From Giardia intestinalis (Eukaryota): a stretch of 64,000 bases of DNA. Shown here one piece after another: positions 3,001 through 62,629 of the stretch. The notes beneath the pieces are model-generated. The model was not told where the DNA came from. It made no database searches and saw only the letters and a program-made list of their open reading frames with translations. Where the stretch lies: the NCBI GenBank assembly GCA_000002435.2, contig CM018793.1; one strand, written 5' to 3'. A program made the position numbers and the translations under genes. Numbering within the stretch: position 1 is the stretch's first letter; each line of letters opens with the position of its first letter.

Positions 3001-3292
3001 CGACCTGTATGTTGTGAGAACTGTCGGTGCATGCCGTGCAGGTCTGGTCGGCAGGGTTGCAGGTCTGGCAGCCCGCCGCACAGCCTGCGCTAGGATTCTG
3101 TTCGCACCTGTTCTGTCCGGCGACCGGGCCGTATCCTCCCTCGCACTCGCACACCTTCTGGTTGGGGGCAGAGTTCGGCGGGCAATCTGCGGCACAGCTC
3201 TTCCCGTCGACCTGTATGTTGTGAGAACTGTCGGTGCATGCCGTGCAGGTCTGGTCGGCAGGGTTGCAGGTCTGGCAGCCCGCCGCACAGCT
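1..3292. repeat. Perfect tandem repeat array, 207-bp unit (69 codons), about 15.9 copies in the window, truncated by the window start; coding (see minus-strand CDS)
   Basis: The unit acctgttctgtccggcgacc... recurs at 1, 208, 415 and so on. The track's 65-aa ORFs recur every 207 bp with identical translations, so the copies are 100% identical. Identity is lost at about 3291 (cagcCTgcg becomes cagcTTgcc). Confidence 0.95.
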
Positions 3293-3334
3293 TGCCTGTG
3301 TTACCGCACAAACTAGGAGAAATCCTACCAACAT
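1..3334 (-). CDS. VSP-like cysteine-rich surface protein with 69-aa tandem repeats; N-terminal part only (ATG at 3334-3332), C-terminus lies beyond the window start
   Basis: Manual minus-strand translation from the ATG (plus-strand cat at 3332-3334) gives MLVGFLLVCAVTQA, a signal peptide, then SCAAGCQTCNPADQTCTACTDSSHNIQVDGKSCAADCPPNSAPNQKVCECEGGYGPVAGQNR, repeated with no stops across all copies. Each unit has 10 Cys and CXXC motifs typical of Giardia VSP/HCMP proteins. An in-frame stop lies upstream at 3344-3346. The ORF track omitted this gene because the reading frame runs off the window edge. Confidence 0.8.
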   Translation of the reverse strand, partial: MLVGFLLVCAVTQASCAAGCQTCNPADQTCTACTDSSHNIQVDGKSCAADCPPNSAPNQKVCECEGGYGPVAGQNRCEQNPSAGCAAGCQTCNPADQTCTACTDSSHNIQVDGKSCAADCPPNSAPNQKVCECEGGYGPVAGQNRCEQNPSAGCAAGCQTCNPADQTCTACTDSSHNIQVDGKSCAADCPPNSAPNQKVCECEGGYGPVAGQNRCEQNPSAGCAAGCQTCNPADQTCTACTDSSHNIQVDGKSCAADCPPNSAPNQKVCECEGGYGPVAGQNRCEQNPSAGCAAGCQTCNPADQTCTACTDSSHNIQVDGKSCAADCPPNSAPNQKVCECEGGYGPVAGQNRCEQNPSAGCAAGCQTCNPADQTCTACTDSSHNIQVDGKSCAADCPPNSAPNQKVCECEGGYGPVAGQNRCEQNPSAGCAAGCQTCNPADQTCTACTDSSHNIQVDGKSCAADCPPNSAPNQKVCECEGGYGPVAGQNRCEQNPSAGCAAGCQTCNPADQTCTACTDSSHNIQVDGKSCAADCPPNSAPNQKVCECEGGYGPVAGQNRCEQNPSAGCAAGCQTCNPADQTCTACTDSSHNIQVDGKSCAADCPPNSAPNQKVCECEGGYGPVAGQNRCEQNPSAGCAAGCQTCNPADQTCTACTDSSHNIQVDGKSCAADCPPNSAPNQKVCECEGGYGPVAGQNRCEQNPSAGCAAGCQTCNPADQTCTACTDSSHNIQVDGKSCAADCPPNSAPNQKVCECEGGYGPVAGQNRCEQNPSAGCAAGCQTCNPADQTCTACTDSSHNIQVDGKSCAADCPPNSAPNQKVCECEGGYGPVAGQNRCEQNPSAGCAAGCQTCNPADQTCTACTDSSHNIQVDGKSCAADCPPNSAPNQKVCECEGGYGPVAGQNRCEQNPSAGCAAGCQTCNPADQTCTACTDSSHNIQVDGKSCAADCPPNSAPNQKVCECEGGYGPVAGQNRCEQNPSAGCAAGCQTCNPADQTCTACTDSSHNIQVDGKSCAADCPPNSAPNQKVCECEGGYGPVAGQNRCEQNPSAGCAAGCQTCNPADQTCTACTDSSHNIQVDGKSCAADCPPNSAPNQKVCECEGGYGPVAGQNR

Positions 3335-44000: not shown

Positions 44001-47000
44001 CTAACTGAGTATTCAGAATTGGGAATCCATTGACTACTTCTGAGTTAATACTAATATGGATGCAGGTGTAGGCCTGAAGTGTTTTTATAACCTCTGTAAC
44101 AAGTAGAAGGTCGTTCCCCTCGAAATTTGAATACATTGTCTCTAAGTAAGGTATTTCAATGTTTTTACTAAAGATTGGAAACATCTTTCTGAATTGTAAG
44201 GGATTTGTTACCGCTAACTGAAAGTCTGAGAGTTGCATCTTAAGAACCTCGGACGAAATTGCGTAGAGAGCTCCGGTCACCTTGCTAAGCCAGTCTGAAA
44301 ACACCAACAGTACTCGTGAAAAAACGCGAATATGGCGCTTATAGTTAAATCGTGCATTCTTATAGGCATGGTTCACCCAACCTAGTTTAGCAGCCGCCTG
44401 TAATGCTACATGCAGTTCATTACTTGATAGAATTGATGGCTCAGTTGGACGAGGCGCTTGGGCCTGGCTCAAGGCCAGGTGAGGCCTTGGTGTCGTCTCG
44501 TTTTGATCAAAGGAACCTGAGAGTCCAAAAACAGTAGGGATTGTGTGGGTAATTGAATTTCTGATATCATATAAAGTGGAAAGACAATAGGAGTTGCTCA
44601 GTTTCGAGATTGGGCCAAGGAAGTCGCAAAGGTAGCATGCAACTGGAGTCCACTGCTTCACAAATAACCCGTGGTCCTCCATCACAACTAGGATTTTGGA
44701 TAGCTTGTCCAAGTTTAATGTTGTAATATTTAACACGGATTCTGTCAGCTGCAGCACCCGTAACATGTAAGAAGAAGCTTGCGTAATAATCTTTGAAATG
44801 GACTCGGTAATGTTTTGGCGTACTGTAATAAAGGCCGAAATAAGAGAAAGCTTAAAGTCGATAAGACTAACAGTAATACTGCCAGTGGAAACATATGAGG
44901 AAATGGCATAAGCATCTAGTATCTCTTGATCGATAGAACGAACCAGCTCAGCCGATATATGCACCATAAGTACAAGATAATCGACCCCCGACGAATTAGC
45001 CAAAGTAACAATATTCTCATTAGGGGACTCTCCTTTTAGAATAACGCTCACGTAATCCCTAGCAATGGTTTCGATAGCAGACAGCGAACGTACAAATCCT
45101 GGCGAGACCTTCATACTGTCTTCGCCCATGCTAGTATAAGGATTAGGTACTTGAGAAGTGTCAAAGCTTTGTGTCTCGTCATCAGGAGTTTCGCTGGGCA
45201 TTTGTGTTTTAAGTAAGTGTTCAGGAGGCGCTGAGTAGACAGATTTTACATCATCTGCGTCGAGGCTAACGTTTGGTAGTCCACTGTCTACAACGAGCTC
45301 AAAAGCTCGATAGAAGCTGCTAATGTTATTACATGTAGAGAGAAGCTCTACAAGTTTTATAGAAAGAGCCTCAAATAGGGTGTCTATTTGCTTCTTCACA
45401 ACAACATCAGTATCAGATGGTGCAATGAACGCAGTTAGGACAAGCGGAGAATCCATAGTGTCCTTCGCATATATAGGATCATTATCTACATCGGAAAAGT
45501 GCATAGCTGTTGTACTAGAGCTTTGTGGCGGCTTTTCTGTTCTGGACGACGGACAAAGGGGAGGAAGTTGCAAATGCATCCTAGGACGAACTATAGGCTC
45601 TAGAGGTATTAAGATATTAGATTGGCGCTGTTTCAAGCCAAGCCAGGACGAGAAAAATTGGTCCACCTCTTGATCAGGGTTTGACAGAAGTAAGTCTTGT
45701 GTTAGTGTGAATGCAAAGTCGTCTGAATCCGTCTGCGCAAGTTGTTTGACGTTGGAGAGAAGGGCTTTGCATATATATCTGGCTGTGGGGACCTCAAAGC
45801 TATACTTATCTAAGAAAAGCAAGGACCGCGTCCGTCTATCTAGAAGATTGCCCAGGGGACGAGAGTAAACAATGGCAGTTTTTTCGGTGGACGTGGGATC
45901 AAACGATAACTGAGGCGCTAGAACAAGAGAATTGATAGAAGAGATAGAAGACTCCGTGGTGTATAAGCAAAATGACAGCTCGCGAAGGCTTTGTTGTAAC
46001 CAAGCAAAACCTGTCACGGAAGTAGATTGGTGAGTGAAGCCAATACTTGAATTCTTAATAGTGAGTGTAGATGAAATGAACGGTGCGTACATTGATGAGT
46101 CTGTACGAAACTGAAGGCGGGGAAAGCCAGTCACTGATAGCAAACTATCCAGAAGATTACGACTCCACATCTCGTGCATCTGCAAAAAAATATTCCCGAT
46201 GTGTGTCTTTATTTGTTCAACCAATGTACGGAGAAAGCGGGGCCATATGCGATCGAAAGCTCTCATTAGGATGGCGTCGCTAGAAAGATCCTGATTCCCA
46301 TCTGCTAGAATAGAAAGCGCGGTATGAATTACGGAGAGTGGCAAGCCAGATGCAAGTAAGCGATCACGTCTGTCACTCTTCGTCTCGGAGGCCTCTTTGA
46401 GTGATTTGACACGAAGCTGTTTGATCTTTGTTGAAAAGTCAATAGAAAAGGTACTATCTGAAACGCATGTTGGAACAATGCTATCTACCACATAATTCAA
46501 CAGGCTCGACTGCAGAAGAGCAACTATTGTTGAACTTAATATCAAGGGAATGATCTTCTCTACGAAGTATAATCGAACAAGATAATACCGTTCCGCCATG
46601 TTAGATATGGGTAAGAACGATGAGAAAGGTTCCATTAATAGAGACCCGCGCTCCTCTGGTGTAGCTTCAGTTTCATACAGTATTGAAAGGTGTCTCCGTA
46701 GGAAAAGTTCAAGAGATTCGGATACATCTAACGCAGGCTTTTGATTGGCAGTCCTGAGGTTAGAGGTTAATGAGTCTGTGTCTTTCGTCTGTGAAGATAA
46801 AGCAGAAGTATTATGTAAGATTGTAGTAACTCTTTTATCCAGAAGAATTTGCAGATCAGTTTTGATTGCTGTACAAAGCTCCTCGTCTATAAAAAACTCT
46901 GTTGCAAGAGATGACACGATAAAATGAGGAATCTCTACAAGGGCGTCTTCTTCTACCTCGTGCGTACCATCAGGGAGAGGAGTAAGGAGACGAAGGACAT

Positions 47001-48339: not shown

Positions 48340-48340
48340 C

Positions 48341-48830
48341 AGTTGTACGGTGATTCACTCCACCCACCGGTTGCTTCCAGCGCTGTGCTGCCGGGCCGCC
48401 TGCAGGCACGATTCAAAAATCTCACGAGTAAATTCTCGTTCAAGCTCTGGCCAGTTCAGAGACGACTGTTGGTCATTGATAACATAATGAGAGAGTCCTC
48501 TCTAGTGATATATCCAGAGCCTGGCACATTCCTCTGCCATTTCATGAGCGTGTGCTCAATCCGGGTGTGCGCGTCGGTCTGCCCAGGATTCAGGCCTTCT
48601 CGCAGACCCTCTGCTCTACCGGTGGTGCCTCTCCTTGGCCTGCCGTCTGGTGGGTGAAGCTCGGGTTGCTGTCTTTTTTAGATGCTCCCATCTGTCAAGG
48701 GCTGCCACCGGGCTCTCCGCTGGCTGGGCCCTCGGTGCCCGTCCGGCTGTGGCTCGAGTCAGGGCTCCCACAGTCGCGGTCACCTGGGTCTCAGTGGGCC
48801 GGCTGGTGGGACCGGGTGGGGGGTGTTGTA
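48341..48830 (+). repeat. Arm A of an inverted repeat (VSP-3'-flank-like element, about 85% identical to arm B), abutting the start codon of the giant gene
   Basis: The reverse complement of 48345-48690 aligns with 50600-50870 and with 59031-59360. Shared blocks include ccaggattcaggccttctcgcagaccctctgctctaccggtgg and cttttttagatgc. Homology continues, with more decay, to about 48830 versus about 50420. Confidence 0.75.
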
Positions 48831-50419
48831 TGTGCCCTTGGTGTCAGTGGGTCAGTGGGGTGGTGGGTGATCTCCGCTCTGTTTGCCAAGGTGGTTGTGT
48901 CTGATCCCCAGCCTTCGTTGCACTCCAAGACACAGGCACCGACGATCGTGTCGTGTCCCCTGACTGAGCGCCTCCCTTGGCCCCTTGTCTCAGGCAGTAC
49001 TGCCTCTCTGACTGGCTGGTGCGTGAGTGTCGAGGCAGGCCATCGCAGCCCCTCCTGTTGCTCTGTGCGGGTCTGCTGGGCCCCTGGCATGCCCTGTCCA
49101 GTGCCTCGACGGTAGTTCACCTCGGCCAGCAGGGGTGTGGATGGCCTGTGGATGGGATGGGTTCTCTCGTGCCTCTAGTGTGATGGCCCAGAAGACTGGC
49201 ACAGTGGGGCACTGGTGACTGCACTGTCCCTGTGGTCAGCTGTGCTGCTCCTGGTGGGTCCTCGTTGTGGAGCGCTGTGTGTCGTCCGTAGGCAGAGGTG
49301 AGCCTCCTTGGTCTCAGGATGCTCTACCATGCAGAGAGGAGCACGCTGATGGTTACCCATACCTCACCTGCTGTGCCCGTTCGGGAGTTCCCGATGTGGT
49401 CTACTAGGATCTTGACCCCTCCTCGTGGCTCTGATGACCCCTCGGGGAGAGCCGGGGCATCCTATGCCGAGGGGCGTGCACCCTCCTGCATGAGCTGGGA
49501 CCCACTGCACTGCCTCCAAGGAGGTCTGCTATGAGAGGCAGTGAATGATTGACAGCCCCAGAGTGCGGTGGAGGGTGATCGTGGTCATCTCTGTGACCGG
49601 GCATCACTCTGATGGTCGGCTCTGTGCCTGTGTGGTGCTCATGGGCCACCTGTCTGCCTCATCGCCTGCTGGACAGCCGGCCTCTTGTGGCGTCCGAAGG
49701 CCTCCTCGCTCCTCTGGCTGCTGCCCCCTCAGGTCATCGTGAATGCAGTCGAGGCCAGCGAGTCTGGTGCCTGCCTGGGTGTCATGGGGGGCTGGCAGCT
49801 GTCAGGGCTCTGCCACTGCTCACCTGCCTGGAGTGTGCCTCCCTTGGGTCTGCTGTGCTGCGTGAGTCCTCTGGCTTCCTACCAGGCCCTGACTGTGAGG
49901 GTGACTCCACCTGGCCCTCTGATGCCCCTGTGGATGAGCATAGCAATGTGTCTGGCTAGGGATCTCTGGTGCCCGTGTCTGTCACTGCCTCTCGGGTGGC
50001 TGTCTGGGGCTCTCGCATGAGGTCTACAGTCAGCGTGTCCCGAGCAGACTCCAGTCCTCTCTGGGTCCACACAGTCTGTCCGTGTGTGGACGGTCCTCCT
50101 GCACTCATGTCCATCTGTGCACACTGTCACTCAGTCTCGAGAGCAGACCAGTGCAGTCGCCAGGGCTGCTGTCAGAGGGAGTCGTCTGTCACTACATCGC
50201 TCGAGCAGCCCATGCAGATCAGGCTGGTTGCTGTGCACCCTCATGGCAGGGCTGTTTGACTTCCCTTGGCTATCCTCTCTGTCCCGGTGTGCACGGCTCC
50301 TGAGGGTTGTCTGGGTGGAGGCACTCACAGATCACGAGCACACAGAGGGATGAGTCACAGATGGGCAGCCCCCAGTCACCACAGCTACGATCACCTCACT
50401 CACCAAGAGGTCAGGGGCA

Positions 50420-50870
50420 TATACAAGTACCCCCACCTCAGCCCCCACCAGCCCCACCAGCCTCACCGCCCCACCCACCAGCCGGCCCACTGAGACCCAG
50501 GTGACCGCGACTGTGGGAGCCCTGACTCGAGCCACAGCTGCCCGGACACCGAGGGCCCAGCCAGCGGAGAGCCCGGTGGCAGCCCCTGACAGACGGAGGC
50601 ATCTAAAAAAGACAGCGACCCGGGCCTCACCCACCACGAAGGAAGACCAAGGAGAGGCGCCACCGGTAGAGCAGAGGGTCTGCGAGAAGGCCTGAATCCT
50701 GGGCAGGCAGACGTGCACACACAGACTGAGCACACTTCCACAGAGCGACCGGGGAAGGTGCCAGGTTTTAGATATACTAATAAAGAGGACTCCCTAGTAT
50801 GTCGTCTACAACCAGCCATCGTCCTTGGACTGACCAGAACTTGAACGAGAATTTACTCGTGAGATCCTTG
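50420..50870 (-). repeat. Arm B of the inverted repeat, lying immediately downstream of the 3' UTR of the truncated VSP at 50941
   Basis: The 50607-50865 core is nearly identical to 59031-59290. It is inverted relative to arm A. It starts about 70 nt beyond the VSP poly(A) signal. Confidence 0.8.
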
Positions 50871-50925
50871 AATGCACCGCAGGCGGACCTATCAGCACAT
50901 CTACACAAGCTACGCACAGTAACGC

Positions 50926-50932
50926 GTTTACT
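50926..50932 (-). promoter_or_regulatory. Giardia polyadenylation signal AGTAAAC, 10 nt after the VSP stop (TAGACTTAGGTAGTAAAC)
   Basis: Matches the established Giardia AGTPuAAPy consensus. The context TAG-ACTTAGGT-AGTAAAC is the conserved VSP 3' end. Confidence 0.7.
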
Positions 50933-50940
50933 ACCTAAGT

Positions 50941-52668
50941 CTACGCCTTCCCTCTGCACACGAACCACCAGCAGAGGAACCCTATGAGGCCCCCCACGAC
51001 GACGACCACAGCGACGGAGATCCCCGCGATGGCCCCCGTGGAGAGCCCGCTCCTGTTGGCGCCAGAGGACACACACTTGCCATTGTCTAGACTGTATCCA
51101 TCAACACACTCCCCACATATATTGTCCATCACACAGCTCTTGCAGTCACTCACAGAGCACAGCACACACCCACTACCATCCTTGTTGGGCTTCTTACCAC
51201 TGTCACAGGAGGTGCACACAGCAGCAGCCATGCCAGCCCCAGTCAGAGCTGCTGGGGCTGTACACTGCGAACAGCCATCCACCCCCACATATGCCTTAGT
51301 ATCTACTAGTGTGCCTAGGGGGTTGCCACATGCCAATACAGACTGTTGAGCATTGGTTGCTTCTGGGACTACGAAGTACTTATTATTCTCACTAACAGCT
51401 GTACAGACCCCGTTGTTAGCTGTCTTGCACATATGACTACCGGGGGCCTTCGACACATCATAGCACCCTCCCATATAGAGGAAGTAGTTAGCAGCAGTAC
51501 ATGATGTACAGACACCATTGGCACATCCATTATTATTAGCCTTGTCACTAGCACAGAGACCATCAATTGGTACCTTACCACTATCTCCACAATAAGAACA
51601 ATAATGCTTTGTGGTGCCCTTATCATCTATTACGATGGCATCGCAGGCTCCAGATGTCCCCCCGCAGGCAGTATCATCTTCACAAGTCTTGGTGCATGTG
51701 AGGTCGCCAGGTTCTCCGCTGGGCCTGTAGTTGGGCTTACATTCAGTGCACTTGAAAGTATTGCCATCATTCGAGCAGACACTGCATCCATCGATGCCAC
51801 CTTTGGTTGTATCACTACATAGGACACACTCCTTTGTTCCCTGGGCATCCTTAAGGAAGTACCCCGGCATGCATTCAGTGCAGTCCTGTATGTTTCCCGT
51901 TGAGCCACACTTTGCGCAGTTTCCTGCACAGGGCTTGCAAGTGCTACTCAAGTAGAATCCAGGGAAGCATGCTTTACACACCGGCTTCTGAGAGGCTTCC
52001 TTGCTACACGTCTCGCAGTCTGCTATGCCCTGGTCGTTGCCAGACCCACTGCTATCACCGCACAGTATACACTTGGTATCTCCGTCACTTCGAAAGTGCG
52101 TCCCGTCCTGTCCGACAGTTGCGCACCCAGCAGCATCAACGCACGTTGTCGTCCCGTCGGCAGCAGTTCTTATCAGCTTCCCGTTACAATTGGTGCACTG
52201 AGGCTTCCCCGTAGCATCACTATATTCACATGCAGTGCAATCAGTTATGTCGGGATCACATGCCTTACAAGTCCAGGTCTTCTTGTCTGCGTACTGGGTT
52301 GCCTCGCATTGACCAGCATCTACACATTGATTATTCTTCAGGTACTTCCCATCCTCACACGTTGTGCACTGGCCTGCACCGGTGCAGTCTATGCATCCAG
52401 TAACGCACTTCTTACATGCTCCGTTATCTTTATAGTACCCAGCCTTGCATGTATCACATGTGGCAGCCGTTGGGGTGTTTGGTGCCATACATGTAGCGCA
52501 GCCCTCGACTCCCTTTGTCGTGCCATCTCCCACCGTGTCCCAGCAGAGGATGCACTCGCTACCAGGTTTCTGAGGTGTAACTGGGTTCTTGAACAGGCCG
52601 TTATCTGCCTTACAAGCAGTGCATACTCCGTTACTGGCCTGTGTGCATATCTCACTCCACTATCACCC
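50941..52668 (-). pseudogene. 5'-truncated VSP (variant-specific surface protein) lacking an ATG and signal peptide; VSP fragment or pseudogene
   Basis: C-terminus GGLIGFLCWWFVCRGKA-stop, GGCY motif (YFLYMGGCYDVSKAP) and many CXXC. The track start at 52533 is a GTG. The Cys-rich frame continues upstream to an in-frame stop at 52669-71 with no ATG or hydrophobic leader. The first in-frame ATG (CATCMAPNT) is not followed by a signal peptide. Confidence 0.6.
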
Positions 52669-52697: not shown

Positions 52698-54462
52698 CTA
52701 CGCCTTCCCTCTGCACACGAACCACCAGCAGAGGAAGCCGACAAGCCCTCCGACGACGACAATCACAGCAACAGAGATCCCCGCGATGGTGCCTGTGCTG
52801 AGGCCGCTCTTGTTCATGCTGTCTCCTCCAGTGTCTCCGCCGGTGCCATCGTCAGTCTCTTGTCGCGTTATGTAGCAGATGACAGATCCTTGACCATTAG
52901 TTGGAGGAGCACAGCTTACGCAATTAGGCACACCAACTATTCCATTATCGCTATCAGCTGCACATTTGAAACACTTACCAGTACCAGTTCTATAATATCC
53001 AGAATAGCATTCAGTACAAACATCCGAATTGCTAGCCCCACACTTTGCACAGCCCTCAGAACATTCCGGACATTTTCCTCCGGCTGGGCTTTGTCCATTG
53101 GCTGCACATGTCTGACACTGTCCATTCTGAGCGCTACTGCATAATGTGTTACCTGGGTATGCTGTCGACTGATAGCACCCGCCAGACTGCAGGAAGTATG
53201 AACCTGTACAGGCCGTACATGTCCCGTCGTTTCCTGGCGTGCATCCCATGACTTCTCTTGTTGCTGTCGATACGCAAATACCATCTACTGGGGCGTATCC
53301 AGCCTTACACTTGCTGCAGTACTTCGAGCCCCCAACGACGGCCGTGCACTGCCCGTCTGCGCAGTTCTCTGCATACCTTCCCGTGCACTCTGGGATGCAT
53401 GTGCCGGTGGCTCCATCGTCGCCCTTGCTTAGCACATACCCAGGGTAGCAAGCCGTACACGACGTTTTTGCATTAGTACTACAGCTTGCGCATGACTCGT
53501 GGCAGGGGGTGCACACCTTGCTATTAGCATACATTCCAGCAGGGCAGGCATCTAAGCACGCATTCTTTTCTGGAGTGAGATACTTGTTTTGTTCACACGT
53601 CAAGCATGTGACCAAAGGGGTGGCTCTGGATCCTTGAGTGAGCAGACTGCACGTCGCACAATTAGCGATTCCACCATCTGGCGCACTATTACATGCAGCA
53701 CACTTGTTTCCCTGTTGTTCATCGACCTTTGGAAACGTAGCCGCTGTACATCCAGATGCTTCGACGCACGTGCCTGTGCTGCCACCGTCCACTTTCAGAT
53801 ATGTCTTAGTACCAGTTCCTTTACACTTACTACACTTGTTATTGCCTGTTACGGCACACGTAGCGCAATTCTCGTCTTGGCATGCTTCACAAGTGGGGCC
53901 AAAGAACCCGTCCTCACAGGTTGTGCACGTGGCAGGCACAGGATTAGTATCACTTGCTGCTGCTTTGGGTGCATCACACACTTTGCAGTGCAGCACGCCC
54001 TTGTACTTGTGGCTGTTTCCAACCAACACTTCTTCAACATCTCCACATGGTATGACCGATTGGTGTGCATTATCTCTATCTGCACCTGGTGGCACGAAGT
54101 ACCCAGCCTTAGCCTGCGTGCACACTCCAGCATTTGCTGTTTCACACATCGTGTTACCAGGCTCAGTAGCTTTTTTGTAGCATCCGCCTTTGTACATGAA
54201 GGATTCATGAGCACACTGTGTGCATACTCCGTTGTTCTTAGTACTGCACTCGTTGTTGTCTGCCGTGCACTTGCCGTCTGTCGGAGCAGATTGAGACCCA
54301 CTGTCATTGCACTGTGAACAGTACTTCTTGCCGTTGATGACGGCGCTACAGGTCTTGCAAGTGTTGGGGTCACTGCCAGTTACCTCTTCACATTCGTCTC
54401 CGGCTTGCGCTGCCCGTGCCATCTCGAGCATGAGGCCAATCAACAAAACTGCGTAGAACATT
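52698..54462 (-). CDS. Variant-specific surface protein (VSP), about 587 aa from the true ATG
   Basis: The track start at 54497 is a TTG. The real ATG (cat at 54460-62) gives the signal peptide MFYAVLLIGLMLEMARAAQA. The protein is Cys-rich with CXXC motifs, two GGCY motifs (FMYKGGCYKKATEP, YFLQSGGCYQSTAYP), a TM helix and the invariant CRGKA tail. Confidence 0.9.
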
Positions 54463-57400
54463 GTGGCTCGACGCTCTGTTACACAGGAATATAGCAACTT
54501 CGCTCGTCAGTCCGCCCCTTCGTGGCATCCGCCTGCGCTGCATGACGTATCGGCAGGGAAGGCCTCCACATGGGCCTGCACTGAGAGGTGGAGTTGTGCT
54601 GGTTCCGGTCTCATGGCCTGCCATCCCCGGGTCCCATGTAGCTAGCCGACCATGAAGATGGATCGATCAGTGCAGGCCCCTCCTCTGTGTTGCAAGGCGC
54701 ATCGCATGATAACTGCTACATGGCTGACCAATGCTTCGCTCTTCGCTGTGATGTGAGGGTCTCCTGGCGACCAGTTCTCCTGCTGTGCCAGTCACAAGGT
54801 CTGCCAAGGGACTCCTAGGTTCTCCTGGATGCCTGACCAGCGACCCGATGGAGCCGGCCGTGCGATGTCCAGCAGCCCGAGCCACGGGTCGTCACAAGCA
54901 GATGCCCCAGACACTGCTCGTCGAGGTCCTACGTTGAGGCCCGGCAGGAGCGATGCCCCGTGGAGGAGGGCTGCGTGTTCTATCGCGACTCACTACGACT
55001 GCCCCCTCTGCTTAGGGACACGCAACATGCCCGCCGCGAACGGATGGATGTCCGTCTGTCATACGACTTAACCTGGTTGCACCGCAGACCGTCGATAAGC
55101 CTGCCCCCTGTCGACTCCTATGCCACTGAAGGGCTCTGCCGGCCGATCGTCTTTAAAGACTGTCCCTCGCCGGTCGCAGGCCCATCTAGGAACCGGTGCC
55201 CGTCCGTCCTCATCTGGGATGGTCCCACTGGGGTGGACACGCCTTCGGGTACGCAGTGATGTGCCAGCACCCTTAGAACTGGTAGTCCCGCTCGCCTAAC
55301 CGGCTCCAGCCAACATACCACAGCGTCTCTCACACGAGGGCTACCCCGCGCACCGGAGAAGAGGTGATACCGGACAGCCAGCGCTATCTGGGCTGCCACA
55401 CTCCCTGCTAGCCAAGGGATAGTGGAGCCGTAGACGAACTGGGCCGTTGTCGTCCCTCTGGTTGGGGGTGCCCAGGTCCTGGAGCCATTGCCAAGAGTGA
55501 TCAGCTGGGTAATGTACACAGCGTGGCCACCGCTGCCAGGGGACACTCTTATGCTTGAAAGTCTACCAGCGAGACTTGGCCCGGTTGGCTGGTCAGAGAA
55601 CGGACTGTGTGCTGGTCAACTGGACTGAAGATTGATGATAGTGCTATATGGACAGCAAGCTAGGAAAGTCAGTGCCTTCTAGATTTCGTGTCACATTGAA
55701 CAACCCGCCGTACGAGATGCCTTAGACGATCAGCTGACTTTACAAAGTACTTTGGAGTACCAACAACTGTGTGGAGATGAGACAGTGAGAGAGCCTTAAA
55801 GCAGCTCGCGAGCAGAGAGGCTGGTGTGCACAGCAATGTGATCCATTAAGTCTCTGTTGGGTGCACAAGAAATGCTCGAATGTAGTAAACTGGTTGGCGC
55901 CTCTTATAGCAGGCAAGGGCTTCTATCCGCGCTGTGCAGTCGTGGGATGCACCTTGTAGACTTGAGGTGGACATCTACAAACACCGTGACTTGGAATGTA
56001 ATTGACAAAGTGCTTGAGGTCTAACTTGAGTGGGCAAGAGCTGATTGTGTCACCTCGGTTGGCAAGTATGTCCAACTGCGTAATGCGTGTAGTCGTCCCC
56101 TGGTGAGGGTGGATGGCCATCTACAGAGCACTATAAAGCTAATCGTGTGGATTGTGGGAGCATCATCCGGTGGCTCGTCTACTGCGGAAAGACGCAACTG
56201 AGGAACTGCTGAGTAGCAAACACGCTGACTGATATTGGTGTGCACCGTATACCTCTACAATAGGGTCTTGCGCCACGTACGGAGAGGAAACGAGCTCCCT
56301 CGACTTCGGAACAGTTGAGTATCCAGAAGCCTCTGCCTCGCTACAAATGCACAAAATCAAATCAGCCTCAAGTCGTCTGCAGACTCCACGATCTTTCCAC
56401 GTTTGGAGGCCAGAGGGACTCACGTGTGTCCTTATTGCAAATGGGTCTATACCTAGTCATCCTATTACAGAGTGGGCTCCCTGGCTTTCTCCATCTTCTT
56501 TGTCCAAATTTGCTTCCCGAGGATCTTTGTACACGAGTAGCCTTCTGTGTACCCAAATAACATCCTTCTTTGTTGAGGCGCTTCACCAAGGACTAGATAC
56601 CACTAGGTCATGCGGACAAAGGCAAACCTTTTCGCAGGTCCGTCTAAAACCAGCCACGGGCATCCAGACAAGTGTATAGATGCTTATCAAGTGGACTGTG
56701 ATACAGGCCAGTTATCGCATGAGGTTCACAGCAGTTGGTGTACAGAGTTCTGTTTTTAGCCATAAGTGTGGAGCCCATGTCTCACCTTGAAAGACGGCAG
56801 AGCGCTTTGTAGGACCTTCCGGGTATATAGTTATTGCTATAACTGATGGAGAAGCAGGTACGAAGACACGATGCTTACACAGAAGCACCTCTGGTGCTAT
56901 CTTCCACTGATAACAGATAGCTCAGACAGGCGGTGTACGCTCTATCATCAGACCTTATACGGCGTGTGTGCATTATTAGAGAAGCTTCTGTAATCTCTGC
57001 TCAGTCTGCTGGGCAGGCACAGCCCAAGTGCAACGAAGACGGTGGTGGAGGCAGCCACCGGCGCAGGGCAGTGGGGCGTGTGGCTCGGTGCAGTGTTCTG
57101 TAGTTAGACACCTCGGCCCTCTGAGACGAGAACAACACGCTGTCTGCACATGCGACTGCCTTTTCATGCTGCTTACTCCTATGAGCAGTTGCGATGCATC
57201 GTATGCCAGAGAGCGGGGCAGAGGGTCCCCAGACTATTGGACCAGCAGGCTAGACTGACAAGAACAGTTGACCATGCGTGCAGAAGCTCTGTCCTGGGGG
57301 CGGCGGGTGCAACGGCTGCCTCAAGTCTTTTAGCCGGGGTGGAGCTGTCCCCTGCTACCTGAGTGGTCTCTCATGCGAGCCATCGCCACCCTGGGCAAGC

Positions 57401-59030
57401 CCCTCGCTCGTTCACCAACCGAGATCCAGATCCAGAGTTCGAAGGTGAGTGTCAAGCGACTCCGGCGGGAGAAGAACTCTTGTTCTGCCCTCTTCCCAAG
57501 GACGAGGCAGGACAACCACGATCAGGGGACGATCATGATGCGCTCCACAAGGCAGTCCCGAGTCCCCTGGAGACCCAGACACTGGTCTTCCTTGAGACCT
57601 AGCAGACTGCGTTCCACTGGATGTACATGGGCGGCATTTGCATGGCGCAGGGAGGCGCAGACTGATGGAACACAGCGGTCTTGCTCGACATAGCGAACAT
57701 TCCAACAGTAGACGGCCTCTGCCAGGCGAGTGTGCCCTGCCCCGAGGAGCTGCGTCGAGGCCTTCCTCCGGCTGCGACGCGCTGCACTCCTGGACTTGGT
57801 CCCTCGGGGTTGAGCATGCTTCTGTGCTGCGGGGGACAGAACCTGCTCATCGGAAGCTGAGGAGATGCCCCGCTCACTGCCCATGCCGACGACAGCGACG
57901 CGACGAGGCAGTCACAGAGGCGACAGGCCCGGCGAAGCAACATGGCTCGACGGTCAGCACTGACAAGTATAGGAGCACAGAGTAGCAGGGGGCCCCCTTC
58001 CTGGCCGGTCTCAAGGAGCCCCCAAGGCAACCGAGGGCCGAAGCCAGTGATGGCACTAATCACTCGCCCCGCTTGTCGAGATGGACCCACACGTGACCTA
58101 TGTGAATCCCTCGACAAGAGATGAGGCCCTTGGGGTGCTTGGCTGACAGAGGCGGATTGATCCTGCCTGCACCGGAGAGTGGTGGCGGCCTGGGCCACTT
58201 GCCGGGGGTCTGCCACAGCAGCTGGTAATGCCTTGACATCCTCGAGTAGACGGGTGCCGATTGTAGAGAGACGGCCTCGGTGAACCGGTCCTGACCGCTC
58301 CTGGTGCCTCAGACGACGCCTCGACAGACCGAAGCACCACCCCAAGTGTGCTGTGCGGTGCAGATGGACCAGCCCACACGTCACTGAGCCAGATGCACTG
58401 CACAGGGTGGGCGTCGACGCGGTCTCGTGCTGGGTGACGGACCACCTGCAAGAGCGCCCTGCGATCCATGAGCAGAGGGCCATACTTCTCCCCGACACAA
58501 CACATGGGAGTACTCCATCGACATCCACGAATGCGTACCACAACCTCAAGATAGAGGGACACGGGGAAAGCGCCCTCCGATCATACTCGGGACTGATGGT
58601 GCCCTCCACGAGGAGACGAAGAGGCACCCGAGGAACGGGGTAGACATCCGAGGTATGGCGTGCGATCTTCGTTATGAAGCACCAGCACCACAAAGCGACC
58701 CTGGAGTACATGGCCAGAGTTAACTGCTCTCGAGACTGGATCGCCGCGACTGACGCAAGGCCAGAGACAACGGGTGCTCACTAGTGCCAGACGGTGGCTG
58801 GCCCCGACAGGCCAGAGCGGAGAGACGCCCCGGAGCGCATAGTGGAGCACCCAACGGCTCCCCGGGCGAGGAGGCACAAGGCTCTTCTCCAGAGTGGACG
58901 GCATCTAAGCTTCGGATCCTGGATTTGGATCTTAGCTAATGCATGAGTGGGAGGCCTGCCCAGAGTGGCAGTGACTCACGTGGGAGACCACTCAGATAGC
59001 AGATGAGAGTAAATTAGGGGACCTTATTGA

Positions 59031-59360
59031 AAAAGAAACAGCGACCCGAGCTTCATCCACCACGAAGGAAGACCAAGGAGAGGCGCCACCGGTAGAGCAG
59101 AGGGTCTGCGAGAAGGCCTGAATCCTGGGCAGGCAGACGTGCACACACAGACTGAGCACACTTCCACAGAGCGACCGGGGAAGGTGCCAGGTTTTAGATA
59201 TACTAATAAAGAGGACTCCCTAGTATGTCGTCTACAACCAGCCATCGTCCTTGGACTGACCAGAACTTGAACGAGAATTTACTCGTGAGATTTTTGGATC
59301 GTGCCTGCAGGCGGCCCGGCAGCACAGCGCTGGAAGCAACCGGTGGGTGGAGTGAATCAC
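59031..59360 (-). repeat. Third copy (C) of the VSP-3'-flank-like repeat, in the same orientation as arm B, with no adjacent VSP coding sequence
   Basis: 59031-59290 is nearly base-for-base identical to 50607-50865. 59291-59360 matches the segment of arm A that abuts the giant-gene ATG (ccggtgggtggagtgaatcac). Confidence 0.8.
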
Positions 59361-60454
59361 TAATAATACTTTAGACATATCACCGTGCACCAGTCAGCCT
59401 AAAGCTTAATAAAGTCTTGACCTCCTGCATGCTTGCTACCTCTTTTTCTATACCCATAGGTGTGTATTTACGAATAGCGCCGCTCTGAACGTATGCAGTA
59501 GCCAGGTATCTCACCAAACTAACGATTGCGGGAATAGAGGGCTGGAACTGGATCTTCATCTGATAAAGTTGCAACATGGAAACACACAATCTTCGAACGC
59601 TGAACAGAATGGAGCAAGACAATCCACGTCAGTATATAGTATAGGGGCATTCTTAACGTTATAGTGGTTATGAGTATAACATCTTTAATAGAGAGAGCAG
59701 GACTATGAGAGATTACGGTTCAGACAACCGTGAAAGGTATACAGGAATCCATGTGCGGGCGCTCTAAGTGTCTTAAGAGGATTCAGTGGAAGCAGCAATT
59801 GGTACTATTGTTAAAAACAACGGCCAGTTGCATTCCCCGATTCTGGACCTCTACATAAGACTGGTAAAACCTATCCCCCTGTGCTCCACGTGATAACTTT
59901 AGAAAGTGGCACTGGGATTGAAGGACATGATTGAAGAGCCTTTTTAACCAGAAGCACCCCAGGATCCTCTCTAGTGTCCGACCCTTTGAAGTTTCACGAG
60001 CATTACGGGCACTCTGCGCCAAGGCCCACAAGACGATGTTGCTCCATGACAACCGGCGTGGGTTATTAAGAGATACTGGGAGAGCACAGCACAGATCACT
60101 GGGGTGACCATCGATTGACAGTGTGACAAAATCAGTAGTTACAGGTGTCACAGGATCACAAGCGTCAGCATCCAGTGGGGCTCATAGGTACCTTTTTCCT
60201 CATGTTCAGGCAGAATCGTTACGAAGAGCATTGGAGTCTCGCAGAGGCCGTATTGCTGTGATGAAATGCTAATTACGCGATATATGACAGTCGGCATACT
60301 TCCTGCCTAACCATGGACCGAGACATTATTTTCTGAGATAGAGGGTTATGGTACTTTAGACTAATTAGTTTAGACTCGTTAGTGAAGTTTTCAATAAAAA
60401 AGAATATCTTTATTGGGAGCGTTCGCTACCATCAGTGAAAGCTAAAAACATAGG

Positions 60455-62629
60455 ATGGCTTATATTAGAATGCTGTTATTGACTTTCTACTTCATAGTGA
60501 ATAGTTTCGCAGCGCCTTGCCAACAGAAGGGGTATCACATGGTAACATGCAAACCGAATAGCTGTGAAAGAGTTGGTGTCATAGAGATTTGTGTTCAGTG
60601 TAGGGCAGGAGGGGTTCCTATCAATGGACAATGCTCTCTATTCGACACTTCTTATGTTGCTGAAGCGAGATGTACCAAAAGTGATGGTACCGCTTTGACA
60701 AGTTCCGATACTACCTGCGGAAAGTGCGGCGGTGAGTACTTTCTCTTCATGGGAGGGTGTTATGGCATAAAGTATAGACCTGGCAATGAGATATGCACTA
60801 GGGCTGATGATGGAAAGTGTACCACTTGTAATACAGGAAATAGTGGTAAATACGTATTTAAGAATGGAGACCCTAATGCTGCGCCGGGAACAGAATGCAT
60901 TCTGTGCCATGATACGATGGGAGCAAATGGATATACAGGAGTAGCAAACTGTGCAGAGTGTAGCCATGCAGGAACTAGTTCTGGTGCTGCTACCTGTGGA
61001 AAATGCCAGACAGAATACTTTAAGAGTGGAGATACATGTACACCATGTGGAGCTGATTGTTGGATTTGTGAATCTACAGCTAAGTGCACAGTGTGCAAAT
61101 ATGGAAAATATATAAAAGAAAATGGTAATGATAGAACTTGTGTAGACACTAGTGGATGTGGTACTGGTAACTATGCAGATATAAGAACAAACGAGTGCAA
61201 GCCGTGCACGGACACAAGTGTCAATGAATGTGCTACGTGTACATACAGTGACACCCTCAGGAAGCCCGTATGCACTGGGTGTAATAGTGGAGGAGCCAAG
61301 CCTCTCCTTAAGGTGGACCTCGATGGGTCAGCGACGTGCGTTGCGGAGGGAGAGTGTGCAAGTGGCAATACGCACTTCCTTGAACAATCTCCAAAGGCTT
61401 GTGTCCCGTGTGGTGATGCTAAGAATGGTGGGATTCTAGGTTGTAGCACTTGCTCCTCTAAAACTACATGTACAAAGTGCCTCGATGGATATTACAATAG
61501 TGGAAATGGTGGTACGGTTACATGCACAGCTTGCGGTGCCAACTGTGCTACATGCTCTGCTGCTGGCAATGATCAGTGCACTAAATGCAAGCCTGGATTC
61601 TTCATGAAACAACCCGGCTCTGCTGGTAAGTGCTTCGCCTGCGACAGTAAAGCCGACAATGGCATCGAGGGGTGCTCCCAATGTAACAGCGGCCTAACCC
61701 CTACATGCACCGATTGCAAGTCCAACTATCGCAAGGAGGGAACCAATCCGGTGAAGTGCACAAAGGCCTGCGAGGACCCCACGGCCTGCGGGGGGACGTC
61801 TGGGGCCTGCGGGGCGGTCGTCGTTGACAGCGCCGGGGCGTTCTCCCAGTACTGCTCGCTGTGCGGAGACCCCGCCACATTCCCCATCGATGGCGTTTGC
61901 ACAGGGGATAAGGGCGGGAATACCTGTGCCAATGGCGTCTGCACCCGGTGTGCTGCCGGGTTCTTCCTCTTCATGGGCGGCTGCTATGATGTGTCGAAGG
62001 CTCCTGGCAGTCACATGTGCAAGAGCGCCGAGGGAGGGAGGTGCACCGTCCCTGGTGAGAGTGGTCGATACTTCATAGTCCCTGGAGCATCCAGCACTGA
62101 TCAGTCTGTCCTGACATGTAGTAACCCAGTAGGCACACTGACAGGTACTGGTAGTACCGCTAAGGCATATGTGGGGGTATATGGCTGTTCGGCATGCACA
62201 ACCCCAGTAGCTCCGTCTGATGGTGGTATGACTGCTGCTGTGTGTACAGCGTGTAACAACAACAATAAGCCCAACCTGGCTGGCAGTGAGTGCCTCACAT
62301 GTACCGTTAGTGGATGCTCGCACTGCAACAGGGATGACATGTGCTCCGCCTGCACAGAGGGGGGCAAGAGGCCGAACATAGACGGCTCCCAGTGCATCCC
62401 CTGCAATATCGACGGGTGCGTCAGGTGCAGCGAGGAGAACAAGTGCGGCCAGTGCGGGGGTGACTACAAGCTGGAGGGTGAGGCGTGCATATTCACCAAG
62501 CCCAGCGGGGGCAACAGGAGCGGACTCAACAAAGAGGCCATAGCCGGCATCGCTGTTGCTGTCATCATCGTCGTCGGGGGCCTCGTCGGTTTCCTCTGCT
62601 GGTGGTTCATATATAGAGGGAGAAAGTAA
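60455..62629 (+). CDS. VSP-like high-cysteine membrane protein with a non-canonical cytoplasmic tail (YRGRK instead of CRGKA)
   Basis: ATG at 60455 after an AT-rich leader. Signal peptide MAYIRMLLLTFYFIVNSFAAP. GGCY motifs (FLFMGGCYGIKY, FFLFMGGCYDVSKAP). The C-terminal about 230 aa are paralogous to the truncated VSP at 50941. TM helix GGLVGFLCWWFIYRGRK-stop. AGTAAAC (62625-62631) overlaps the TAA stop. Confidence 0.85.
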   Translation: MAYIRMLLLTFYFIVNSFAAPCQQKGYHMVTCKPNSCERVGVIEICVQCRAGGVPINGQCSLFDTSYVAEARCTKSDGTALTSSDTTCGKCGGEYFLFMGGCYGIKYRPGNEICTRADDGKCTTCNTGNSGKYVFKNGDPNAAPGTECILCHDTMGANGYTGVANCAECSHAGTSSGAATCGKCQTEYFKSGDTCTPCGADCWICESTAKCTVCKYGKYIKENGNDRTCVDTSGCGTGNYADIRTNECKPCTDTSVNECATCTYSDTLRKPVCTGCNSGGAKPLLKVDLDGSATCVAEGECASGNTHFLEQSPKACVPCGDAKNGGILGCSTCSSKTTCTKCLDGYYNSGNGGTVTCTACGANCATCSAAGNDQCTKCKPGFFMKQPGSAGKCFACDSKADNGIEGCSQCNSGLTPTCTDCKSNYRKEGTNPVKCTKACEDPTACGGTSGACGAVVVDSAGAFSQYCSLCGDPATFPIDGVCTGDKGGNTCANGVCTRCAAGFFLFMGGCYDVSKAPGSHMCKSAEGGRCTVPGESGRYFIVPGASSTDQSVLTCSNPVGTLTGTGSTAKAYVGVYGCSACTTPVAPSDGGMTAAVCTACNNNNKPNLAGSECLTCTVSGCSHCNRDDMCSACTEGGKRPNIDGSQCIPCNIDGCVRCSEENKCGQCGGDYKLEGEACIFTKPSGGNRSGLNKEAIAGIAVAVIIVVGGLVGFLCWWFIYRGRK

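Follow-up and report, generated by a model that had tools for sequence, protein, structure and literature searches.

A non-coding, repeat-bearing 6-kb tract between head-to-head VSP and high cysteine membrane protein genes of Giardia intestinalis

Results

A long gap between two divergent surface-protein genes

The 64,000-nucleotide stretch of DNA that we analysed (the window) belongs to chromosome 5 of Giardia intestinalis WB. Two genes for cysteine-rich surface proteins lie head to head in it, separated by an intergenic tract of 5,993 bp (54462–60454, no strand assigned). The left flank is a VSP gene (KAE8305263.1 / XP_001708033.1; 52698–54461, minus strand, coding sequence starting at 54461), which encodes 587 aa with a CRGKA tail and falls in a ≥90%-identity cluster with KAE8305305.1/KAE8305306.1, a 593-aa VSP whose length is that of the 137708/137707 tail-to-tail pair (Xu 2020, Table 2, PMC7000408). 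The right flank encodes a High cysteine membrane protein Group 1 (HCMP; KAE8305264.1 / XP_001708031.1; 60455–62629, plus strand, 724 aa), whose coding sequence starts at 60455 with an AT-rich stretch immediately 5' of the ATG. As the accessions KAE8305263.1 and KAE8305264.1 are consecutive, the 2020 WB annotation places no gene between them. Intergenic regions of this genome average 477 bp (PMC7000408), which makes the tract about 12 times as long as the norm. This bears out the sequence-only reading, which had described divergent VSP-family genes facing each other across about 6 kb, a gap anomalous for a compact genome, with a figure that was one base off.

Two other parts of that description need correction. 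The tract had been given as about 60% GC; its overall value is 54.9%, and it is a mosaic rather than uniform, with about 58–65% GC at 54400–55600, about 46–51% at 55600–57000, about 55–63% at 57000–59200 and about 40–52% at 59200–60454. Spacers elsewhere in the window had been put at 3–560 bp, yet the window contains a further ORF-free stretch, 2,601 bp long (48340–50940, 61% GC).

The tract shows no sign of a gene

Three-base periodicity exceeded the 95th percentile of the null in 3/57 sliding 300-bp windows of the tract, the number expected by chance, whereas 62% of coding windows lay above the same threshold. The six frames of the tract gave no Pfam match, Rfam gave nothing at E ≤ 1, and the tract contains no tRNA and no tandem array. 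Neither VSP homology nor CXXC enrichment was found in it, and it has no similarity to VSP or HCMP coding sequence. The whole tract is thus without a coding look and gives no sign of a hidden gene, in line with the sequence-only reading; its suggestion of a decayed gene finds no support, there being no residual periodicity, VSP or CXXC signal, or homology.

One conceivable gene is a 392-codon stop-free frame (57602–58777, minus strand), which holds a 370-aa ORF at 57599–58711. In length this open stretch exceeds 99.7% of dinucleotide shuffles (p ~ 0.003), and the ORF was once called, surviving only as the UniParc singleton UPI000018C514, but it was dropped from the 2020 annotation and has no Pfam domain. 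Its periodicity is z = 0.0 (8–31 in real genes), it scores −0.07 bits per codon under a Markov coding model (+0.09 to +0.17 in genes), and its amino-acid composition fits random codons (L1 distance 0.19, compared with 0.49 to real Giardia proteins).

A multi-copy repeat with inverted ends

The 392-codon frame has 43 phmmer relatives at E ≤ 1e-3 (29 at E ≤ 1e-10), all short proteins, from WB, DH and further Giardia assemblies. Of the 43, 20 were looked up, each being either a "hypothetical protein" of Giardia WB/DH or an unnamed ORF from ENA/Logan; one family member, GL50803_0031391, is still annotated. The relatives cover 57376–58923 in several frames. The segment 57345–59009 (1,665 bp, minus strand) is one copy of a multi-copy Giardia repeat family, a GC-rich (~60%), non-coding interspersed element. 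It is bounded by terminal inverted repeats (TIRs): a 105-nt left arm (57345–57449, plus strand) is 73% complementary to the right arm (58905–59009, minus strand). A DNA copy of the element, 80% identical, occupies positions 9677–11047 of another sequence (L007), where both arms recur (9677–9784 and 10943–11047; 109 nt, 75%), and a TIR core is common to both copies examined (2/2). This L007 copy is flanked by a DEAD helicase gene on one side and a mannosyltransferase gene on the other, and is not VSP-adjacent. The family unit measures 1.4–1.7 kb, with at least 6–7 copies each in WB and DH, copy number and genomic spread being inferred from ORF fragments rather than from a genome scan.

Mismatches between the two copies are spread evenly over codon positions (52/51/59), and their indels (1, 2, 4, 5, 7, 16 and 280 nt) are mostly not multiples of 3, the 280-nt one being flanked on both sides by TGGCCC. 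Divergence between element copies is of a neutral type. A real protein-coding gene over part of the tract, whether the 370-aa ORF itself or one with frameshifts or introns, could point to the length of the frame, its former calling and the one annotated relative; against it stand the coding statistics above, relatives that correspond to different frames of this DNA, substitutions equal over codon positions and frame-shifting indels, and we regard its probability as close to nil. Within the repeat, the 370-aa ORF is an accident of reading frame. It had been judged spurious, which is right in that it is not a gene; it is not mere noise, as it exceeds the shuffles and marks a multi-copy family.

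What kind of element this is admits two answers. First, it may be a deleted, RT-less copy of GilD (Genie 2), a dead family of non-LTR retrotransposons already known in Giardia, which would make the tract a gene-poor, GilD-bearing VSP neighbourhood of the kind described as a "psi-RT" spacer (Xu 2020). We hold this reading tentatively, at somewhat less than even chances. The element family is multi-copy, and its internal indels, including the 280-nt one, would suit such a history. Genie 2 reportedly exists as about 10 degenerate copies, all with inverted repeats of up to 172 bp. An RT remnant occurs in 4/7 head-to-head VSP pairs, with spacers of 3.2–6.3 kb (PMC7000408), and the unusually long 3' UTRs of the Gil families could persist as non-coding copies (PMC5537684). 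However, neither a Pfam RVT or endonuclease match nor any other reverse-transcriptase or endonuclease remnant was found, whether in the tract (six frames) or among 10 family ORFs, and the RT motif [FYLMC]xDD is absent from every frame of the tract and of the L007 copy. The two independent copies are collinear end to end, neither with an RT region, the L007 copy has no VSP neighbour, and the likeness to GilD/Genie 2 is one of description, not of reference sequence. The earlier proposal of a decayed retroelement was among the closest to the mark in so far as dead repeats make up a third of the tract; with no RT or endonuclease remnant detectable, the repeat is a candidate retroelement.

Second, the element could represent an undescribed non-autonomous, TIR-bounded (class II-like) Giardia family without relation to the three retrotransposon families known there, which we consider rather unlikely. 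Inverted ends of ~105–109 nt with a common core in both copies examined, a discrete 1.4–1.7 kb unit inserted both beside a VSP and among housekeeping genes, two unrelated settings, and the lack of coding capacity argue for it, and our literature searches gave no account of TIR elements in Giardia. On the other hand, no target-site duplication is recognisable at the element, the unit is large for a MITE, segmental duplication or recombination could have spread the copies instead of transposition, and the element may simply be GilD. To our knowledge, moreover, no transposase is known in Giardia.

The high GC of the 57–59 kb block belongs to the repeat itself: the L007 copy has 56–66% GC and its flanks 43–52%. 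A second VSP-adjacent tract of 3 kb with no called gene (DH L003, 7001–10000; 61–65% GC) resembles the tract in composition but not in sequence, so a regional cause of GC-richness is possible.

A second dispersed repeat and the remainder of the tract

Next to the element, a second dispersed repeat is present as a 330-bp copy (copy C; 59031–59360, minus strand), one of three in the window; outside the window this repeat is represented at DH, GS-B and ENA loci. The other two lie around the ORF-free spacer at 48340–50940, and copy C is 94.6% identical to 50605–50899 and 84.6% identical to 48350–48679. Its outer ~125-nt core (59234–59360) is kept across assemblages A and B and occurs also in L001 (DH), L002 (GS-B), L005 and L006; no covariation was found in this conserved core. 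In assemblages A2 and B the repeat has Cys-rich genes as neighbours, and elsewhere it abuts the 3' ends of Cys-rich genes.

Two multi-copy repeats within one tract raise the question of a chimeric join through repeats. The break in two short-read assemblies from A2 isolates falls exactly within copy C, and the DH contig runs past the T-run into the A/B-type repeat, not the TIR element. Against an assembly artefact, the WB assembly was built from PacBio reads at 200x and compared with optical maps (PMC7000408), repeats of 0.33 and 1.7 kb would be bridged by reads several kb long, and two independent assemblies are collinear with the tract over its right-hand 1.4 kb. We deem an artefact very improbable.

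The remaining 1.1 kb on the right (59361–60454, plus strand) is the unique 5' flank of the HCMP gene, orthologous and collinear in A2 isolates. Between WB and the DH or ENA contigs, identity is 95.4% over 59361–59900 and 97.5% over 59901–60454, with one gap column; 59720–59827 bears a weak resemblance to sequence upstream of a DH VSP. The resulting A1–A2 divergence of 2.5–4.6% compares with about 3–4% at synonymous sites of the E1 gene next to it, and this flank drifts at about the neutral rate.

This rate bears on the idea that the tract is a regulatory, lncRNA or chromatin domain common to both antigen genes, for example a source of dsRNA or siRNA for RNAi-like VSP control. The tract does lie between two Cys-rich surface-protein genes, its inverted repeats would form dsRNA if transcribed, and VSP-related Gireps are transcribed on both strands and have been proposed as siRNA sources (PMC2817412). 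Lacking similarity to VSP or HCMP coding sequence, however, RNAs from the tract would not target these genes; near-neutral divergence of the HCMP-proximal 1.1 kb, an element copy between housekeeping genes, the absence of an Rfam match and a repeat core without covariation also count against such a domain, which we find improbable.

The left half comprises an anonymous GC-rich block abutting the VSP start (54462–55600, 61% GC, no strand assigned), without coding signal or similarity, and anonymous non-coding DNA (55601–57344, no strand assigned; 49% GC at 55601–57000 and about 60% at 57001–57344), in which no periodicity or homology was found. Together, these 2.9 kb (54462–57344, half of the tract) had no match among about 115 kb of other Giardia DNA, so a repeat patchwork is demonstrated for only about 33% of the tract.

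Discussion

Considering all of this, the tract is non-coding DNA, probably of the gene-poor type found around VSP-family genes, and we interpret it as a repeat patchwork and not a functional unit. One third of it is dead repeat, namely the 1,665-bp TIR-bounded element and the 330-bp dispersed repeat. Insertion, duplication and ectopic recombination of repeats would have left, from the HCMP side, about 1.1 kb of unique 5' flank in near-neutral drift, the 330-bp repeat copy, the 1,665-bp GC-rich dead element with its ~105-nt inverted ends and 2.9 kb of anonymous, signal-free DNA. Such DNA may accumulate here because insertions and rearrangements are tolerated beside VSP genes, which evolve fast and recombine; the element is presumably no longer mobile. 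The surroundings of VSPs are known to be gene-poor (PMC7000408), GilD occupies gene-poor regions adjoining VSPs and carries internal deletions (PMC2861651), and inverted vsp pairs have 2–4 kb of non-coding DNA between them (PMC2996952). Gene-poor DNA and dead GilD elements beside VSPs are thus already published, and the tract agrees with these repeat-littered surroundings; "VSP-associated filler", as the sequence-only reading had it, was likewise among the closest candidates.

Comparison with known systems

Girep tandem repeats (Chen et al. 2007, 2009) are likewise GC-rich non-coding Giardia repeats discussed with VSP genes, but they form 222–228-bp tandem arrays similar to VSP repeats, whereas the tract is neither tandem nor VSP-similar; the window does not contain the Girep-1 primers. 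With non-autonomous TIR (class II) or MITE-like repeats of other eukaryotes, the element shares terminal inverted repeats, no coding capacity and occurrence as a discrete unit in unrelated contexts whose copies diverge neutrally. It differs in having no visible target-site duplication, in exceeding typical MITEs in size and in TIRs that are only 73–75% matched, and we know of no autonomous partner or transposase in Giardia.

GilD/Genie 2 (Arkhipova & Morrison 2001; Burke et al. 2002) is similarly dead and degenerate with internal deletions, and shares a VSP-adjoining gene-poor location (PMC2861651). The element differs in its unit of only 1.4–1.7 kb, in one copy between housekeeping genes, and in the lack of reverse-transcriptase or endonuclease similarity in the tract copy, the L007 copy and the 10 family ORFs. 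The order of ten copies is alike, and Genie 2 is also said to have inverted repeats.

The spacers of inverted VSP pairs in G. intestinalis WB (Adam et al. 2010, PMC2996952; Xu et al. 2020, PMC7000408) differ in that the tract's genes are a VSP and an HCMP rather than an identical duplicated pair, in that their 5' flanks have no mutual similarity in a window self-comparison, and in that no RT remnant is detectable in the tract. They share with it head-to-head Cys-rich surface-protein genes with gene-free kilobases between them and dead repeat material in the spacer; the tract's size falls inside the published 2.2–12.4 kb head-to-head range, and the window's 2.6-kb spacer is of the tail-to-tail type.

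A gene-free gap between two divergent cysteine-rich genes

The coding sequences that face each other across the tract start at 54461 (VSP, minus strand) and 60455 (HCMP, plus strand), leaving a head-to-head gap of 5,993 bp (54462-60454). The 724-aa product of 60455-62629 is 100% identical to the G. intestinalis WB C6 "High cysteine membrane protein Group 1". The two flanking genes are numbered consecutively (KAE8305263.1, the 587-aa VSP, and KAE8305264.1, the HCMP), so the curated, RNA-seq-supported 2020 annotation placed no gene between them. The mean intergenic distance in the WB genome is 477 bp (PMC7000408). The window also holds the Giardia snoRNA GlsR19, alongside VSP genes ending in CRGKA.

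The sequence-only reading had described a gap of about 6 kb without a gene, about 60% GC, in a window whose other spacers measured 3-560 bp. The gap and the absence of a gene are real. The description of its surroundings and composition was too simple: overall GC is 54.9%, in a mosaic (about 58-65% at 54400-55600, 46-51% at 55600-57000, 55-63% at 57000-59200 and 40-52% at 59200-60454), and the tract is not the sole long spacer, as 48340-50940 is a second long ORF-free tract in the same window (2,601 bp, 61% GC).

Six-frame translation of both strands of the tract gave no Pfam family at E<=1. Rfam 15 gave no match over 54000-60600, either at the gathering threshold or at E<=1, and hence no rRNA fragment or known ncRNA in the tract, and ARAGORN found no tRNA there. 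The tract showed no 3-base periodicity in any sub-block (z = -0.8 to +0.1, versus 8-31 for genes of similar length in the window). Sliding 300-bp windows exceeded the null 95th percentile for periodicity in 3/57 cases, the number expected by chance, compared with 62% of coding windows, which disfavours a recently frameshifted pseudogene. No part of the tract is coding, and this settles that the 6-kb gap on reference WB chromosome 5 hides no gene.

Three specific origins were considered and rejected. For the remnant of a VSP pseudogene, a tblastn search with 122 VSP/HCMP proteins found none in the tract, the sole result being read-through into a dispersed repeat, and CXXC motifs were not enriched above shuffle level (the neighbouring VSP has 22). 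For an origin in bacteria, phages or plasmids, plasmid and phage sequences searched with blastn ("distant" mode) gave no match. For a decayed RT or endonuclease, six-frame Pfam, scans of the repeat family's ORFs and a search for RT motif C were all negative.

No signal of any sort came from the left-hand 2.9 kb of the tract (54462-57344), and nhmmer found no match to it at E<=1 in the rest of the window or in about 115 kb of other Giardia DNA. In isolate DH (assemblage A2), a 3-kb tract of 61-65% GC without a called gene lies directly upstream of a VSP (AHGT01000001, locus L003, 7001-10000). It is unrelated in sequence to the tract studied here, so such tracts recur without forming one family. 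In a minus-strand frame of the DH tract, CXXC occurs 5 times, where shuffles average 2.0.

The 370-aa frame is the footprint of a DNA repeat

The stop-free frame that holds the 370-aa ORF (57602-58777, minus strand, 392 codons) exceeds in length 99.7% of dinucleotide shuffles of its own GC-rich block and so merited a proper coding test. The ORF had earlier been judged spurious, and we agree: periodicity is absent (z = 0.0), the Markov coding score is -0.07 bits per codon (genes, +0.09 to +0.17), and the relatives of the ORF lie in mixed frames. Its composition is also close to random-codon expectation (L1 distance 0.19, versus 0.49 to real Giardia proteins).

A full HMMER scan (1.84 billion representatives) returned 43 relatives at E<=1e-3, including 29 at E<=1e-10, all short (57-315 aa). 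A 370-aa entry identical to the ORF is present in a collection of 5.8 billion proteins; a single 4,034-aa query joining all 34 open frames returned no hit there, so that this negative is unreliable. Among 20 relatives that were looked up, 7 are ORFs without a name from ENA or Logan contigs and 13 have Giardia or UniParc records. The 13 include "hypothetical proteins" of WB (GL50803_31118, GL50803_0031391) and DH (DHA2_152867, _152313, _150218, _151684, _154431, _150057, _154554), as well as early UniParc entries that we read as early WB ORF calls. Their sequences change reading frame along the minus strand of the window and together tile 57376-58923 and 58962-59264. The 370-aa ORF is therefore the footprint of a multi-copy DNA repeat, not a protein family, and its relatives are accidental ORFs that gene callers laid on repeat copies. 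A protein-coding gene at this position was rejected, as codon periodicity, frame conservation and lower change at codon positions 1 and 2 are all absent.

A GC-rich element with inverted ends

The repeat under the frame is a 1,665-bp element (57345-59009) with inverted ends of 105 nt, 73% matched (57345-57449 and 58905-59009), referred to here as the TIR element. A second copy lies at 9677-11047 of L007, a Giardia contig in a metagenome assembly (ENA ERZ28660572), with inverted ends of 109 nt, 75% matched (9677-9784 and 10943-11047). The two copies share an inverted-repeat core, and the L007 copy aligns over its whole length with window 59006-57336 (80% identity). It has 56-66% GC in flanks of 43-52% GC, and is neighboured by a DEAD-box helicase gene on one side and a mannosyltransferase gene on the other; the 20.8-kb L007 locus contains no VSP call. 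The element appears to be multi-copy, as we infer from 43 ORF clusters. A search for the inverted-repeat core pattern across metagenomes gave only chance matches of 22-26 nt.

Mismatches between the two copies fall evenly on the codon positions of the long frame (52/51/59), with 205 transitions, 64 transversions and indels of 1, 2, 4, 5, 7, 16 and 280 nt. This pattern is neutral decay, with no conservation of the frame. The motif TGGCCC lies on both sides of the 280-nt indel in the window copy, which is compatible with a microhomology-mediated deletion, although the motif is not significant by itself. No target-site duplication could be recognised in the flanks of either copy, whose ends are placed only to within about 10-40 nt.

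Two readings of the element were weighed. It may belong to GilD (Genie 2), the known dead non-LTR retrotransposon family of Giardia, an identity we regard as a serious possibility that falls short of probable. Context, decay and copy number agree with it: the window copy sits between a VSP and an HCMP gene, and the copies are degenerate, 80% identical, with indels of 1-280 nt. Genie 2 copies, reportedly described by Burke and colleagues in 2002, are said to carry inverted repeats of up to 172 bp, and the inverted repeats in each copy (105 nt in the window, 109 nt in L007) match this trait. Pulling the other way, no RT or endonuclease trace was detected in the window copy, the L007 copy or 10 family ORFs, an xADD-type motif is absent from both the tract and the L007 copy, and the L007 copy is not near a VSP. 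Alternatively, the element and its relatives could form an undescribed Giardia family of TIR-bounded, non-autonomous DNA-type units, which we consider possible but somewhat unlikely. No transposase Pfam domain was found in the element or the family ORFs. No transposase is known anywhere in the Giardia genome, which is reported to carry three non-LTR retrotransposon families only. Spread by duplication alone, or other origins, would take up the remaining probability.

Were an undescribed TIR family real, it would suggest that class II transposons were once active in Giardia, or that inverted-end DNA is copied in some unknown way. A family separate from GilD would also add to a known mobile-element repertoire that is very small in Giardia, and its copies would serve as markers of ectopic recombination, the process that shapes VSP loci.

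A second dispersed repeat and the 2.6-kb spacer

A second repeat occurs three times in the window. Copies A (48350-48810) and B (50474-50899) are the inverted arms, about 460 bp and 84% identical, of the 48340-50940 spacer, and copy C (59031-59360) lies within the tract, where its inner end departs from A and B precisely at the start of the TIR element. The interior of the spacer (48811-50473) has no homology to the tract by blastn or nhmmer.

An outer core of about 125 nt is shared by assemblages A and B at non-orthologous loci, with 77-82% identity. It lies at 48350-48474 and 59234-59360 of the window, at 1378-1505 of DH locus L001, where a Cys-rich ORF of 1,463 aa has its 3' end, and at 11687-11813 of L002 from GS-B (assemblage B), where the same holds for a truncated VSP. 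Over its first ~45 nt the core hardly varies, and CGAGTAAA is present in every copy. In Giardia, AGTAAA serves as the polyadenylation signal. RNAalifold gave no covariation support for a structured RNA in the core. Judging by its presence in both assemblages at the 3' ends of Cys-rich genes, the core could be a functional 3'-end module. The Cys-rich ORFs of L001 and L002 share one frame where they enter the core (…LLHPPVASS…).

The spacer adjoins the tail of a VSP-like ORF (50941-52533, minus strand) and agrees in size with the 2.5-2.8 kb of published tail-to-tail pairs (Xu et al, 2020; PMC7000408); the partner VSP is missing. This ORF has a CRGKA tail and a GTG start, lacks an ATG or signal peptide, and lies 165 bp downstream of, and head-to-tail with, the VSP at 52698-54461. 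Its exact sequence, read from the GTG, is not in the protein collection searched, and the ORF probably belongs to what the 2020 annotation calls "pseudo-VSPs in arrays". The other arm of the spacer stops some 10 bp short of the ATG annotated for a 6,420-aa ORF (29077-48339, minus strand), whose first ATG directly adjoins copy A. Residues ahead of its second Met (M20) are rich in the AT-type K, I, N and Y. Judged from these residues and from what we take to be Giardia promoter traits, the true start may be M20.

At the left end of the window (1-3295) is a tandem array of a 207-bp unit (15.9 copies, 64% GC). Its plus-strand ORF of 1,066 aa (116-3316) is only the antisense shadow of the minus strand, which encodes a Cys-rich CXXC unit (…CQTCNPADQTCTACTD…) with tblastn matches to VSPs P0084 and P0110. 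This identifies the array as the repeat region of a VSP/HCMP-type gene leaving the window's left end. Identity of either the tract or the array with Girep-1 was rejected, as the Girep-1 primers are absent.

The orthologous locus in A2 isolates

Relatives of the HCMP at 90% identity or more were found in two assemblies, that of DH (P0128) and one from ENA (P0129). Their contigs (L005 and L006) are syntenic with the window: the HCMP is followed by an E1 ubiquitin-activating enzyme gene and then by more housekeeping genes. The contigs stop within copy C, at about window 58981 and 59220. These short-read assemblies break there because the repeat is multi-copy, and the repeats thus explain why such assemblies break at the gap.

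The flank of the HCMP is 95.4% (59361-59900) and 97.5% (59901-60454) identical between WB and DH, with one gap column; identity is 91.7% in the HCMP CDS, 95.6% in the HCMP-E1 spacer and 99.0% in the E1 CDS. E1 differs by 10 nucleotides and 2 amino acids over 328 codons, which implies roughly 3-4% silent-site divergence and puts the evolution of the HCMP flank close to neutral in rate. The repeat at the orthologous site (L005 1-378 and L006 1-141, versus window 59043-59360) is only 76-83% identical, against 95-97.5% for its flanks. It is nearer copy A (48350-48728) than copy C, and its continuation in DH is of the A/B type, with no passage into the TIR element. From these alignments, the pattern suggests either ectopic conversion among copies or a junction specific to the WB lineage.

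Relation to published VSP neighbourhoods and known elements

The tract fits the published picture of VSP-adjacent DNA. Inverted vsp pairs with 2-4 kb of non-coding DNA between them, called "cryptic", were described by Adam et al, 2010 (PMC2996952). Xu et al, 2020 (PMC7000408) counted 19 pairs, with constant spacers of 2.5-2.8 kb in the 12 tail-to-tail pairs and an RT remnant in 4/7 head-to-head spacers (3.2-6.3 kb), and found VSP surroundings to be gene-poor and more heterozygous. Published head-to-head spacers range from 2,190 to 12,440 bp (PMC7000408, PMC2996952). GilD is dead, disrupted by microhomology-mediated deletions and located in gene-poor regions next to VSPs, according to Arkhipova's group (PMC2861651). 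The initial interpretation, decayed retroelement or VSP-associated filler, thus survives in part: one third of the tract is repeats in a gene-poor VSP neighbourhood, but an RT or endonuclease remnant was not recovered.

We propose that the tract is inert, tolerated DNA. A VSP neighbourhood may take insertions and ectopic exchanges because its genes are singly dispensable and often recombine. The GC-rich inverted-end element and the repeat from the 3' flank of Cys-rich genes would have landed in, or been copied into, the tract; substitutions, small indels and deletions would since have worn both down neutrally. A regulatory or dsRNA role, raised by the tract's position upstream of two Cys-rich genes, seems to us improbable, given that the tract lacks similarity to VSP sequences and that the TIR element also sits in the housekeeping region of L007. 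Tolerated DNA is the reading we retain, and the results have no bearing yet on the control of VSP expression. Their value lies in the concrete dissection of one gene-poor VSP neighbourhood, in which one third resolves into two repeat families with boundaries, inverted ends and copies across isolates.

Compared with known systems, the TIR element shares with class II TIR or MITE-like elements the terminal inverted repeats on a discrete multi-copy unit; unlike them, neither it nor its family ORFs provides the transposase expected in the element or an autonomous relative. GilD copies would be expected to keep a recognisable RT (and endonuclease) remnant, which the TIR element lacks. Like GilD, the window copy is degenerate, internally deleted and set in gene-poor VSP surroundings, whereas the L007 copy lies away from VSPs. 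The tract itself resembles the inverted VSP pairs of Adam et al (2010) and Xu et al (2020) in having kilobases of gene-free DNA (5,993 bp) between head-to-head Cys-rich genes. Those pairs have identical or near-identical ORFs and duplicated flanks, whereas the genes here differ (a 587-aa VSP and a 724-aa HCMP), matching each other by blast over only 109 nt (79.8%), in both cases in the 3' tail region. The tract is thus an ordinary example of a published genomic feature, to which two delimited repeat families, one with inverted ends, add modest new detail.
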